Counted from the stretch's first letter, positions 39,859-44,631 are shown. The stretch is DNA of 64,000 nt from Edaphocola flava (GCF_004118155.1 NZ_SAIQ01000002.1:460487-524486); one strand, 5' to 3'. The notes: generated by a model from the sequence alone, not told the origin. Program-made: numbers and translations.

Positions 39859-42150
39859 TTAGATCCTCACAATTCCATACTCTTTGTCGAATTTGGCCAG
39901 GTACTCACCTATAGAAGGAACTATTCTCTGGGTTCTGACACAGGTGTTTTTGTACGGTATACATTTAATGATCGAGTCTGCAATGCCATTGTCAAAAGTC
40001 ACCATCAATTTGATCGGAACATCCAGTTCTGCAGCTGATTTAGAGCCCAGGGTCAGGGTTTTGCCATTGGTTGTATATTCAAAATCTTCGTTTTTGACTT
40101 TAACTACACCACTGGCCTGCTGCCCAAGCGCATGCCCATCAACCACCCAGGTATATGTTGTTACCTGCAGGTTGCCATTTATTCTGGCGGTAAAGTTGGC
40201 TGTTTTTTTATCCCGTACGGTAATATAACGCCCTATCCAGTTACCTGCGGGTTTATTTACCTGCATAATCTGCGCTTTCAGGATATTGTCATCTACCATT
40301 ACCGGCAGGCGCTCCATTTTGTGTACCGTTGTACCCGCTGGTACAGCAGCGCGCATTACATGAGCAACGCTTTTCTGCGCTTGTGTTGCAATAGCAGTTA
40401 GCCTTTCCTGCATTTTATAGTTGATGTTACGGGCATCTATATAGCTGACTTCTTCCAGTTTGATGTGTTCATCAAAGAAACGGAACGGTTTGCAACTGAA
40501 GTTGCCGCTGAAGTCGATCGTATAGATATCAGATTTATAGGTTTTATACCGGATGATAAACTCATCCCTCGTTACATTGACGACTACGAAGAGGCCCAAT
40601 GCATTGTCGGATGTTCTAATAGCCGTAATGCGTCCTGTTTCGAAATACTGATCTGAAATAAACGGTATGGGCACATAATTGGCGAAGTAGGGTAATGGCA
40701 GATTACCGGTTATGCCATATGTGAGCATCAGCAGATCGAAGTGCCTCATGGAGGAGAACGGTTTGCCATTGGCCAAAGTTGCTATAGCACTACCGCACAA
40801 TACCTTCAGGTTCCGGCTCTGTTCCCAGCCCTCCAGGCGCAGGTCTGCACCTCCGAATTGCTCATTTTTAATGATGCCGTTATCCAGGTCGAAATATTGA
40901 CCGCTGCGTATCGTCAGTACACCCTCCGACTTAACCGGCCAATACTCTCTGGGCGACATATCGTAGGTGACTGTAAGGTCATCAATAAAGGCCTGATCCA
41001 GTATGGTGTCAATACCCACCAGCTGTATACTGATATCATCAATGCCATTGATCGAATCCGTTACCTGCCCGGTAATGTTTTCAATGGTAGACTCGATTAC
41101 AGATTGTGCGATCCAGAGCAGTAACGGTACGATGATCGCACCGACAATGGTTCCGGTTACACCGAATATTATACCGCCCAGCAGGGCACCAAGTACAGCA
41201 GCGCCAATCCAGCAATACCATGGGATGTCAAGATCTATATCCGGGTTGTCGGTTTCAAAGCTGACACGCAGCTCTCCGCCTACAATAGCTACCCGTATTC
41301 TTGCTGTGAACGAGCCACTGGCCTCATAACAGAAGCCACTTTTGGCGACGCGTCCGGAGAGTACGATATGATCATCTGCCGGCCTTACGGACAGATTGGT
41401 AAGCCTTACCCCATCGCGGATTTCGAAGTTGCCATTGAACGTACAACCGGAGAAAGAGCCCGCCGGAAGGCCAATGCCACTTTCTATGCGTGGACTGATG
41501 TTCCTGCAGATCCAGTCGAAATTAATGGCTACTGCCGCTCCTGCACCCTCGCGGGCGAAGGCCGAGGTGAAATCATTAATATTGCCTGCTGCACCGCCGC
41601 CGTAGGTCAGCATAATACCGATAGCATCATTATTCGTAGCCGTACTGTCATCGATTACTTTGACATCTGCTCTCGTAATAGAAGTGGTGCTGGTACTGGT
41701 TCTGTTGACCGGGATCGGGATCAGCGGAATGTTATTATTGTTCAGCTTATCCTGGATAAATGTTGCAGCAACAGTAGTAATCGCAGTCGGTATTCCTGAA
41801 ACACTAAGGGTGCAGCGGTATATTTTATTGATGAAGTCGAGAATGACTTTATCAAAATCGCTGTCTGTGCGGTCTACGTCCATGCCGACCACAACTTCCA
41901 GTGTGCCGGAGTTGCCACTGCTGAAGTTTAAATTAAATAAAAGGCGAACCGGATTAACTGCGCTGGCCGGAATGCCGGCAGGGCGGTTGAAGTCAACGGA
42001 TAATCCGAATCCGTCCAGGCTCCCGATGGTAGCGGGTAGCAGACTGCCTAATAAGCCATCATTATCGAAGGTTGCAGACAGTAAATTTTGTATGGTTAGC
42101 GTACTGATCTCGATAACCATATCGAAGCCGTGAGTTTGTGTGCCTGCCAT
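39859..42150 (-). CDS. Large uncharacterised protein (763 aa): an ~300-aa N-terminal domain, a central glycine-zipper two-helix TM hairpin, and an ~410-aa C-terminal domain; no signal peptide
   Basis: Residues ~311-349 (WYCWIGAAVLGALLGGIIFGVTGTIVGAIIVPLLLWIA) are the only hydrophobic stretch and carry repeated GxxxG/AxxxG motifs. No recognisable enzymatic motif. Last gene of a four-gene operon. Confidence 0.7.
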   Translation of the reverse strand: MAGTQTHGFDMVIEISTLTIQNLLSATFDNDGLLGSLLPATIGSLDGFGLSVDFNRPAGIPASAVNPVRLLFNLNFSSGNSGTLEVVVGMDVDRTDSDFDKVILDFINKIYRCTLSVSGIPTAITTVAATFIQDKLNNNNIPLIPIPVNRTSTSTTSITRADVKVIDDSTATNNDAIGIMLTYGGGAAGNINDFTSAFAREGAGAAVAINFDWICRNISPRIESGIGLPAGSFSGCTFNGNFEIRDGVRLTNLSVRPADDHIVLSGRVAKSGFCYEASGSFTARIRVAIVGGELRVSFETDNPDIDLDIPWYCWIGAAVLGALLGGIIFGVTGTIVGAIIVPLLLWIAQSVIESTIENITGQVTDSINGIDDISIQLVGIDTILDQAFIDDLTVTYDMSPREYWPVKSEGVLTIRSGQYFDLDNGIIKNEQFGGADLRLEGWEQSRNLKVLCGSAIATLANGKPFSSMRHFDLLMLTYGITGNLPLPYFANYVPIPFISDQYFETGRITAIRTSDNALGLFVVVNVTRDEFIIRYKTYKSDIYTIDFSGNFSCKPFRFFDEHIKLEEVSYIDARNINYKMQERLTAIATQAQKSVAHVMRAAVPAGTTVHKMERLPVMVDDNILKAQIMQVNKPAGNWIGRYITVRDKKTANFTARINGNLQVTTYTWVVDGHALGQQASGVVKVKNEDFEYTTNGKTLTLGSKSAAELDVPIKLMVTFDNGIADSIIKCIPYKNTCVRTQRIVPSIGEYLAKFDKEYGIVRI

Positions 42151-42152
42151 GA

Positions 42153-42533
42153 TTATTTATCTTTAATGGTTATTTTAATATTGGGATTCATGATCTGTCC
42201 ATTGGGCAGAACAAAGCCCTGAGCGGCAAATTGCTCTTCAAGGTTGAAGGCTGCCATTCTTTTTTTGAGCAGAGGGCTGATCTCAATTTTTGATTTGCCG
42301 AAAAACTGAACCGGATCTTTCATCAGCAGGTTCATCTGCTTAGGATCTCTCAGTTGTTTGAGGATTTGCTCCTCGTTGCTGAACAACTCTTCCATATGCA
42401 TTTTGATATGGGGTGCGAGTTTAGATAATGTTTCGGCATAAGGTGCTTTTACAGGGCGGTCCTTGCCTGTACCGGCAGTACCATCCAGGCCTTTGGCGGG
42501 CGTGATACTTCGGTTCGTGATTTTTTTAGCCAT
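42153..42533 (-). CDS. Small hydrophilic hypothetical protein (126 aa), operonic
   Basis: 8-nt overlap with the upstream gene and a 2-nt gap to the downstream gene. Lys-rich, no TM segment or motif recognised. Confidence 0.5.
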   Translation of the reverse strand: MAKKITNRSITPAKGLDGTAGTGKDRPVKAPYAETLSKLAPHIKMHMEELFSNEEQILKQLRDPKQMNLLMKDPVQFFGKSKIEISPLLKKRMAAFNLEEQFAAQGFVLPNGQIMNPNIKITIKDK

Positions 42534-43245: not shown

Positions 43246-43263
43246 GATCTTGGATTTTGGGGA

Positions 43264-44631
43264 TTAACTGATATCAATAAATTCATATAGCGGAAAGTCT
43301 TTGAATTTTCCTTCGGCGAGGTCTTGTCGGATAGAGGGTGTAAGCAGGTCCGGTCTGATCATTTTATTGCGCTCATGAAGGATGCGGTCAAAGGCATTCA
43401 CTTTAGGATAGTTAAACGTATTCGGGTCTATTTGTTTGCAATCTTTAAGGTCGGTCAGGAACTGCTCATATACTTCCTGGCAGAACGCCTGATCCTGTAT
43501 CACTATATTGCTTTCTGAATGATGAAAGGAGGATCCGTTGGCAATATTGAACGAACCTATGGATACAAAATCATCATCAATGATGAGGTTTTTGGAATGG
43601 AAGGCACCGGGTTTCTGCCATTCATAAATTTCAATGCCGTGTTCGAGCAGGTATTTATAATGCTTGGTACACTCCCAGTACATCCAGCCCATGAGTCCGT
43701 TGACCATCAGGGTCCGGGACGATTTCTTCGAATTAGTAATTAATTTGATCTCTACACCTCTGTCTACAGCGTCTTTAAAATATTCTGCGAAAATGCGTGG
43801 CGGTCTTATACCGTGGCAACCCCAGTAAATTCTTTTTTGTGCAGCCTTAATCTTTTCCAGCAGGTAATTGGTTAGTTTCAGTTCGTTTTCATCATAAGGT
43901 TTATGTGCCATGTATGCGATTGGGATGCTTCTTTGTTCCGGGTGCAGCAAGGGTATAGGGTCAAAACATTCTGGATACTGATGACGCCGTAATGAGATGT
44001 CCTTATATATGGTCTGGTACTGATGAGCGAATGCTGCATACTGTATCTTGGTATGTTTCAGGATCTGCCAGGTTTTCTGCATCTCAAAATCACTGAGGAA
44101 CTGGTCCTGTACATCCTGTACGACTTCTCCTGTAATATATACATCGGTATCTCTCCAGGCTTTGGGCTGAATGCCGCCATAGGCATACTTATCGCCCCAG
44201 TTGATGCCCCCGATCACAAGGTGCTTGTTGTCCACGATAAAGTACTTTTCATGGAAGTGTTGTTTTAGTTTCAGCTTTACATTCAACATTAGTTGTTTGA
44301 AGGGATGCCCTTTTTTGAAATTGATATTCCAGTTATCCTTAAGGGAATTATACCCGTAGGTCTCAATGCCGTACTGATGCAGATCCTTGATCAGCGGAAT
44401 GATAAAGGTGGTGCGGTTTACGATCTCATCATAAATGATGCGCACCTTAACACCTGCCTGTGCTTTCTGTTTCAGTAGTGCAAAGAGTTTTTTGGTCGTC
44501 TCGTCTTTCATAAAAGAGAAGGTTACCAGGTGTATGCTTGATCGGGCCTGTTCCAGCAATGCCCATCGAACGGCATATGATGCGCTGCCACTGGGCAGGA
44601 AACGGATATTATTGTGCGCTCGGAACATCAT
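43264..44631 (-). CDS. Phospholipase D superfamily protein with two HKD motifs (cardiolipin-synthase/ClsB-like, no N-terminal TM)
   Basis: HEKYFIVDNKHLVIGGINWGD and HSKNLIIDDDFVSIGSFNIANGS: two HxK(x)4D(x)6G(S/G)xN motifs. 455 aa. Confidence 0.8.
   Translation of the reverse strand: MMFRAHNNIRFLPSGSASYAVRWALLEQARSSIHLVTFSFMKDETTKKLFALLKQKAQAGVKVRIIYDEIVNRTTFIIPLIKDLHQYGIETYGYNSLKDNWNINFKKGHPFKQLMLNVKLKLKQHFHEKYFIVDNKHLVIGGINWGDKYAYGGIQPKAWRDTDVYITGEVVQDVQDQFLSDFEMQKTWQILKHTKIQYAAFAHQYQTIYKDISLRRHQYPECFDPIPLLHPEQRSIPIAYMAHKPYDENELKLTNYLLEKIKAAQKRIYWGCHGIRPPRIFAEYFKDAVDRGVEIKLITNSKKSSRTLMVNGLMGWMYWECTKHYKYLLEHGIEIYEWQKPGAFHSKNLIIDDDFVSIGSFNIANGSSFHHSESNIVIQDQAFCQEVYEQFLTDLKDCKQIDPNTFNYPKVNAFDRILHERNKMIRPDLLTPSIRQDLAEGKFKDFPLYEFIDIS

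Follow-up and report, generated by a model that had tools for sequence, protein, structure and literature searches.

A four-gene operon of Edaphocola flava pairs a predicted TULIP-like protein and its small partner with two enzymes of lipid-active folds

To our knowledge, few bacterial TULIP proteins have been studied (YceB, OrfX/P47 and TipA), and all of these are extracytoplasmic or toxin-associated. The known bacterial TULIP families are P47/OrfX2, YceB, DUF4403, DUF2140 and DUF2993 (PMC6791001). In the neurotoxin clusters of clostridia and Bacillus, OrfX1 binds OrfX3 as its operonic small partner, and OrfX2 resembles a fused OrfX1:OrfX3 (PMC13030710). In Bdellovibrio bacteriovorus, the small adaptor TipB binds the double-TULIP protein TipA and opens its lipid cavity (bioRxiv 10.1101/2025.09.09.675085). 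Here, we analyzed an operon of Edaphocola flava that encodes a large protein with a predicted TULIP-like region, a small partner, a phospholipase D (PLD) superfamily enzyme and a permuted NlpC/P60 (C92) enzyme. The operon lies in a stretch of 64,000 nucleotides (NZ_SAIQ01000002.1:460487-524486), which we call the window, and positions are counted from its first nucleotide.

Based on predicted models, the system is best viewed as a TULIP-plus-adaptor system in which both the architecture and the linkage to enzymes are new. Its large-protein family combines a membrane hairpin with a predicted TULIP fold, has an obligate small partner and, in several phyla, is hard-wired to two enzymes predicted to modify lipids. 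ORF (open reading frame) calling on the window returned the four genes at the same coordinates as the original prediction, all on the minus strand:

43264..44631, minus strand: gene 1, double-HKD PLD-superfamily enzyme, 455 aa, predicted soluble (ORF with two PLDc_2 matches)
42526..43245, minus strand: gene 2, YiiX/YaeF-type permuted NlpC/P60 (C92) enzyme, 239 aa (PF05708)
42153..42533, minus strand: gene 3, small partner and putative adaptor, 126 aa (homologues found upstream of the large gene)
39859..42150, minus strand: gene 4, multidomain large protein, 763 aa (AlphaFold2 model and fold searches)

The junctions computed from these coordinates are 18 nt (PLD to C92), an 8-nt overlap (C92 to small) and 2 nt (small to large), in agreement with the tight packing first proposed. 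All four proteins are 100% matches to RefSeq entries of E. flava, which are labelled as a PLD-like protein, a 'YiiX/YebB-like N1pC/P60 family cysteine hydrolase' and two hypothetical proteins. E. aurantiacus has the same locus, and its large protein is 98% identical.

The genes for the small and large proteins form the core of the system. Searches of the ORFs of all fetched loci with phmmer and hidden Markov models showed that the large gene is immediately preceded by a homologue of the gene for the 126-aa protein in about 50 loci, which represent at least six phyla. These core-pair loci are from Bacteroidota, Mycobacterium, Mycolicibacter, other Actinomycetota, Meiothermus, Calidithermus and Acidobacteriota, with further examples in Anaeromyxobacter, Myxococcales and metagenome-assembled genomes (MAGs) labelled 'Proteobacteria'. 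The stop-to-start gaps are mostly 0-12 nt; the larger negative gaps occur where ORFs were called too long in high-GC genomes. The large gene of a distant clade likewise has a homologous partner of its own upstream, of about 100 aa. The small and large parts are fused in frame in P0067 (916 aa) and P0062 (840 aa), both representative proteins, and we confirmed the P0067 fusion on its contig. Such natural fusions are Rosetta-stone evidence that the small and large proteins act together. From the operonic pairing and the two fusions, we infer that the small protein binds the large protein.

The two enzyme genes are linked to this core across phyla. Homologues of the PLD (E values down to 1e-120) and of the C92 enzyme (about 1e-55) flank the core in several groups. 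Both are present beside it in all Bacteroidota loci, in an Acidobacteriota MAG (L034) and in three Myxococcota-like MAGs (L022, L025 and L037). In a MAG labelled 'bacterium' (L041), a PLD gene is beside the core and no C92 gene was detected. A reciprocal scan of metagenome contigs with the PLD profile yielded 40 loci. Of these, 13 have several kb of flanking sequence in each direction, and the small and large genes are present in 10 of the 13 (counted from our tables). Writing P for PLD, C for C92, S for small and L for large, we found at least five gene orders: P-C-S-L, S-L-P-C, S-L followed by C and P on the opposite strand, S-L followed by P on the opposite strand, and P-S-L. Because the adjacency is kept despite rearrangement across phyla, we consider it strong evidence of functional coupling. 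The co-occurrence of the four families is far beyond chance, and the functional unit postulated from one genome thus recurs in several phyla and gene orders.

The large protein had no match to a curated family (Pfam, NCBIfam, PADLOC or PHROGs) or to a PDB sequence. At E ≤ 0.1, no Pfam family matched, including Clostridium P47, apart from a chance match to TauE, which we rejected as low-complexity because it falls on the Gly-rich hairpin. The family has no Pfam model and no name in any source consulted, and we found no paper on it. It is also rare: a word-indexed search returned 26 clusters, and a search of 1.84 billion proteins gave 415 representative clusters at E ≤ 1e-3, with 107 of these at 1e-30 or better. 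An AlphaFold2 model built with 27 homologues in the alignment (mean predicted local distance difference test (pLDDT) score of 79, predicted template modelling (pTM) score of 0.64) divides the protein as follows:

41227..42150, minus strand: TULIP-like lipid-binding region of the P47/OrfX/BPI type, aa 1-308 (limits approximate), with helix-plus-curved-sheet units in the model
41095..41223, minus strand: uncharged Gly-zipper hydrophobic hairpin, aa 310-352, beginning at a conserved IPWYC motif
40501..40953, minus strand: predicted all-β HmuY-like domain, aa ~400-550 (limits approximate)
aa 573-602: predicted long helix
aa 603-620: low-confidence linker in the model, with pLDDT < 50 at 606-617
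39922..40242, minus strand: predicted Ig-like β-sandwich, aa ~637-743 (limits approximate)

In the model, a strongly curved antiparallel sheet wraps around a long helix in side-by-side units of the N-terminal region, the arrangement by which the TULIP fold is recognized. The Foldseek matches of the model include OrfX3 (8e-11), LBP (2e-8) and BPI (1e-7). Given these model features and matches, we assign the N-terminal third of the large protein to a predicted lipid-binding TULIP fold of the P47/OrfX/BPI type.

The original prediction had placed the 126-aa and 763-aa proteins in no family. This holds for curated families, but the 763-aa protein has a recognizable TULIP fold in the model. It had also named a housekeeping lipid-transport family as the competing identity of the large protein; the predicted fold is the one found in lipid-transfer proteins, yet the family itself is uncharacterized. 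The view that the architecture is typical of pore-formers and not of enzymes has to be revised, as the TULIP fold of the N-terminal third makes a lipid carrier at least as likely as a pore-former.

The central Gly-rich helical hairpin between large soluble parts, proposed from the sequence, is also present in the model, where helices span residues 311-329 and 331-368. No signal peptide was visible by eye. The uncharged Gly-rich stretch is 43 residues long (aa 310-352). Family-wide, its median length is 40 residues with a computed range of 16-64, and the shortest stretches arise because a single charged residue interrupts them. Two pairs of cysteines covary among 165 sequences. In about 120 sequences, C274 and C313 are both conserved, and in about 40 both are exchanged, mostly for Gly and Val; a single sequence departs from this pattern. 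C452 and C730 also co-occur, less strictly, with few exceptions. This covariation suggests residues in contact, possibly as disulfides. In the distant clade (L052 and L054-L057, e.g. L057 8979-11518), the proteins are about 700 aa long and share only the TULIP-like N-terminal region and a hydrophobic segment. This segment is shorter (22-31 aa), and the C-terminal domains differ.

The small protein has a basic N-terminus, which is probably disordered, a helical core and a conserved C-terminal 'F-LPNGQ' segment. In the model of the P0067 fusion, the small part forms four short helices (pLDDT 66-82), and the 'F-LPNGQ' segment has no confident placement. The window protein had no match in Pfam, NCBIfam, PADLOC or PHROGs. 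A word-indexed single-sequence search found three near-identical relatives and a profile search found 33, all 'hypothetical'. Weak NCBIfam matches occur among these 33 members, to IniB_NTERM (10 members, best E 2.9e-5), NH_RiPP_Os17 (5, best E 1.3e-5) and leader_NHLP (4, best E 9.7e-5), and two of the 33 have sub-threshold matches to Pfam Frankia_peptide. The inspected IniB_NTERM and NHLP matches were all below cut-off and cover 20-27 residues, and the small protein of the window gives none. We treat this similarity as a lead only. In the P0067 lineage, the fusion gene (L098 7216-11399) is flanked on both sides by small FHA-domain genes (134 and 133 aa), which may hint at phospho-dependent regulation there.

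Compared with the described systems, the OrfX1:OrfX3 complex and OrfX2 parallel the small and large proteins and their P0067 and P0062 fusions. The OrfX/P47 proteins (PDB 8fbd, 8bgm, 9arl and 6ekt) share the TULIP-type fold predicted for the large protein. Like the large protein, they lack signal peptides. However, they have no detectable sequence similarity to it and lack the hydrophobic hairpin, the HmuY-like domain and the Ig-like domain. OrfX1 is itself TULIP-like, whereas the small partner here is predicted to be helical. There are also no toxin or NTNH genes near this operon, and the pair is instead linked to PLD and C92. TipA-TipB is the best mechanistic analogy for the pair. Both of its proteins are secreted into prey; TipB, a C2-like β-sandwich, differs from the small protein, which is predicted to be helical, and TipA lacks the membrane hairpin and the linked lipid enzymes found here. 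With its four helices in the fusion model, the small protein matches neither adaptor fold, the β-sandwich of TipB or the TULIP-like fold of OrfX1. The eukaryotic proteins BPI, LBP and CETP are secreted double-TULIP proteins without the hairpin or the extra domains, at about 10% sequence identity. Our literature searches on PLD with C92, on TULIP with defence and on the architecture of the large protein found nothing.

The PLD matches Pfam PLDc_2 twice (1.2e-38; 132.4 bits vs a gathering score of 27). Both HKD motifs described as intact in the original prediction are invariant in homologues:

44230..44253, minus strand: first HKD motif, H127-E-K129-YFIV-D134 (invariant columns in a nine-sequence cross-phylum alignment)
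43576..43599, minus strand: second HKD motif, H345-S-K347-NLII-D352, then IGSxN (invariant columns in the nine-sequence alignment)

Further motifs are invariant in this subfamily across phyla (HKPYD, WGCHG-RPP, GWMY-E and HH-ES). The protein aligns over its full length to the NCBIfam ClsB model (1e-29), at 103.9 bits vs a cut-off of 281. It is also below the other NCBIfam cardiolipin synthase cut-offs (bac_cardiolipin, 120.8 vs 290; PRK12452, 73.7 vs 787). A sequence search of the PDB gave only a weak match to the Nuc endonuclease. ClsB (YbhO) is likewise a soluble double-HKD enzyme of similar length, but its gene context differs. As judged from motifs and alignment scores, the PLD is a ClsB-like member of a dedicated subfamily. 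A conventional cardiolipin synthase had been named as the finding that would speak against a new system. The enzyme is ClsB-like, but it scores far below the ClsB and Cls equivalog cut-offs.

The C92 enzyme matches Pfam PF05708 (1.6e-9; 38.5 bits vs a cut-off of 27). His71 ('FSHAG') precedes Cys171 ('LSCTELV') and both are invariant in 12 homologues, as expected from the permuted His-then-Cys NlpC/P60 fold that had been read from the sequence. These two residues are the predicted catalytic pair. The protein scores 14.1 bits with the YiiX equivalog NF007458, below the cut-off of 216, and a PDB sequence search gave chance matches only. Its permuted core is common to YiiX/YaeF, LRAT/HRASLS and the type VI secretion toxin Tox-Act1. 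The active-site pocket of YiiX contains a fatty acid (PMC3142127), and Tox-Act1, a permuted NlpC/P60 effector, is a phospholipase that cuts phosphatidylglycerol and phosphatidylethanolamine (PMC12994826). The C92 enzyme here has no conflict-system context. The Pfam and NCBIfam matches of PLD and C92 agree with the claim of two lipid-type enzyme folds. No signal peptide or transmembrane segment was seen by eye in either enzyme, here or in other phyla.

The gene linkage, the folds of the predicted models and the conserved catalytic motifs are consistent with a system for handling membrane lipids, in which the large protein provides the TULIP region and the hairpin, the small protein is an adaptor and PLD and C92 are remodelling enzymes. 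We give this reading about an even chance. The large protein would sit in or insert into the membrane through its uncharged Gly-zipper hairpin. By analogy with OrfX1-OrfX3 and TipB-TipA, the small helical partner would bind it and serve as its adaptor or gate. The TULIP region could then lift a phospholipid from the bilayer and present or receive it. PLD may remodel the head group (by phosphatidyl transfer or head-group exchange) and the C92 enzyme the acyl chain (by fatty-acyl hydrolysis or transfer), and the product of both would be a modified membrane lipid. If true, this lipid hand-off would explain how soluble bacterial phospholipid enzymes get bilayer substrates and could reveal a new membrane lipid. 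A more specific version is possible but doubtful. Here, the small and large proteins would be an ancient lipid machine with an NHLP/IniB-like gate, feeding PLD and LRAT/YiiX-like enzymes that make a specialized lipid, e.g. an acylated or bis-phosphatidyl species. The large protein would then be the first TULIP protein tied to the membrane by a monotopic or re-entrant Gly-zipper hairpin. As members of the Mycobacterium kansasii complex are among the carriers, this version, if true, would be relevant to envelope biology.

Several observations weigh against membrane-lipid handling by the four proteins together. The TULIP assignment comes from a predicted model (pLDDT 79), with no Pfam P47 match at the sequence level. 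Family-wide, the 15 residues on either side of the hairpin are acidic on balance (-4.1 and -2.7) and give no positive-inside signal, unlike those of a normal membrane anchor. A re-entrant or post-translationally inserting hairpin would fit them at least as well as a classical two-span anchor. The possible disulfides would fit an extracytoplasmic site and conflict with the missing signal peptides. By analogy, the closest structural relatives (OrfX/P47, BPI and TipA) also point outward, as they work outside the producing cell. Most loci of Actinomycetota and Deinococcota (Mycobacterium, Meiothermus) have the pair with no PLD or C92 gene within 10 kb, and a marine lineage (L062-64) has PLD-C92 without the pair. 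With the pair alone in most lineages and PLD-C92 alone in this one, the coupling is facultative. The four-gene system of the original prediction therefore stands as a linked unit, but it is modular, with small and large as the core and PLD and C92 as accessories in some phyla.

The same proteins could instead form a membrane-attacking set that acts as a toxin, abortive-infection or defence system, which we consider unlikely. The hairpin would insert post-translationally, either into the cell's own membrane in response to a trigger or into that of a target cell, the BPI-like part would permeabilize it, PLD and C92 would destroy phospholipids and the small protein would keep the large one inactive or soluble. 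An uncharged hairpin with acidic flanks and no positive-inside signal is reminiscent of those with which pore-forming toxins insert. By fold, the large protein is nearest to OrfX2, OrfX3 and P47 from toxin clusters, to BPI and LBP, and to the secreted predator protein TipA, and the covarying cysteines suggest disulfides. PLD-type phospholipases are known as antibacterial effectors. So are permuted NlpC/P60-type phospholipases (PMC12994826). The family is rare with a patchy taxonomic distribution, and at one locus (L009) the neighbours include an AIPR gene and toxin-antitoxin pairs. It is the cysteine pairs, the acidic flanks and the extracellular roles of the relatives that keep this explanation alive. 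However, PLD is most similar, along its entire length, to the cardiolipin synthase ClsB, all four proteins lack signal peptides, and the enzymes are apparently cytoplasmic. No secretion-system, immunity, Rhs/PAAR or mobile-element genes were found nearby. In PADLOC-DB v2, only PLD matches, to generic PLD components (MkoC 1e-14, DrmC 1e-12), and the other three proteins have no match. Megablast found no plasmid relatives of the operon, PHROGs had no viral relatives of the small and large proteins, and Foldseek against viral structures gave nothing significant. The GC profile has no foreign-island signal. Neighbours are mostly housekeeping or metabolic genes, such as succinate dehydrogenase (sdh), frr and tyrS in Marinilabilia, and uvrA (Meiothermus), isocitrate lyase (Mycobacterium), amidase, β-lactamase-like, acyl-CoA dehydrogenase and GH6 genes at pair-only loci. 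The defence or abortive-infection logic first suggested is not supported by these results. We favour, at about even odds, a chromosomal phospholipid-handling module over an immune system. If the set does attack membranes, it would represent a new toxin architecture. Under either reading, the compactness of the four-gene set makes it amenable to cloning and testing.

Two further explanations separate the proteins in other ways. PLD could be a housekeeping cardiolipin-type synthase with C92 as an accessory acyl-hydrolase, and the small-large pair an unrelated envelope pair that is a frequent neighbour. The similarity to ClsB, the PLD-C92 genes alone in a housekeeping neighbourhood in L062-64 and the pair alone in most phyla all fit this. 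We nevertheless find it quite improbable, given that the adjacency survives at least five gene orders across phyla, that a PLD-seeded search mostly yields loci with the pair, and that C92, small and large are joined here by tight junctions (-8 and 2 nt). The PLD also has its own invariant motifs and is far below the Cls and ClsB equivalog cut-offs. It is very improbable that the small protein is IniB-like or the precursor of an NHLP-type ribosomal peptide, with the large protein as its processing, export or membrane-delivery partner. The sub-threshold IniB_NTERM, NHLP-clan and Frankia_peptide matches among the 33 small members prompt this idea, but all inspected ones are below cut-off and only about 20-30 residues long. 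A maturase, a peptidase-ABC exporter and a Gly-Gly cleavage site are all absent, and the C-terminus has a conserved structured motif in place of a variable core peptide. The in-frame fusions to the large protein also fit a subunit better.

The operon is bounded by hairpin terminators on both sides, as originally proposed, and has a candidate promoter:

44802..44888, minus strand: two tandem hairpin terminators, just past the stop of the upstream DUF1801 gene
44681..44688, minus strand: candidate Bacteroidota-type -7 promoter element TAGCTTTG, 49 nt upstream of the PLD start codon
39807..39834, no strand assigned: downstream hairpin terminator, common to gene 4 and the convergent fasciclin gene (read from the sequence)

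On the minus strand, the first upstream hairpin (44888-44854) has 14 pairs, eight of them G-C, followed by a T run, and the second (44821-44802) has eight pairs, six of them G-C. From their placement right after the DUF1801 stop, we interpret them as ending that gene and insulating the operon. The downstream hairpin (39834-39807) reads CAGCCCGGTAA-ga-TTACCGGGCTG and then TTTTT, with an 11-bp G+C-rich stem and a 2-nt loop. Our terminator scanner missed it, probably because the loop is shorter than the scanner minimum of 3. Terminator-like sites are not enriched between 38 and 47 kb (6 found vs 7.2 expected), so the argument for insulation rests on the placement and strength of these hairpins. 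We call TAGCTTTG a candidate on the basis of TAnnTTTG, which we take to be the Bacteroidota -7 promoter consensus. A search of the operon and its flanks against Rfam gave a lone MicX match (39799-39953, over the terminator and the 3' end of the large gene), which we rejected as chance (21.7 bits vs a gathering score of 75, E 0.15).

Positions 44907-46909, immediately upstream and also on the minus strand, encode the DUF1801 protein, a 357-aa membrane fatty-acid desaturase and an AHSA1/SRPBCC protein. The terminators cut all three off from the operon, and the desaturase, although lipid-related, is not conserved beside the system in other loci. On the downstream side, the window encodes a P-type ATPase, a Fur-like regulator, an extracytoplasmic function (ECF) sigma/RskA pair, MsrB and the fasciclin protein. 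Of these, the P-type heavy-metal ATPase with its Fur-family regulator, followed by the ECF sigma factor and RskA-type anti-sigma factor (34479-38582), is unrelated to the operon.

Among the other loci, the PLD-C92 pair of the marine lineage (e.g. L064 7956-10941) is preceded by rpsA, LapB-like, pyrF and SLT transglycosylase genes and followed by PPK2 and a B12/radical-SAM gene. Only in L009 does the small-large pair have a gene of the AIPR abortive-infection type nearby, together with PIN/MazE and ParE toxin-antitoxin pairs (1431-3272 and 11485-13751). We looked for conserved extra partners in pair-only lineages and rejected them, as the neighbours are mutually unrelated. Two related loci (L003/L004, 12083-18364; L006, 12074-18382) share a conserved block beside the pair with a polyprenyl synthase, an FAD_binding_3/GGR-like oxidoreductase and several proteins without Pfam matches, one of them of 849-890 aa. 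This block may reflect lineage synteny or a link to isoprenoid lipids.

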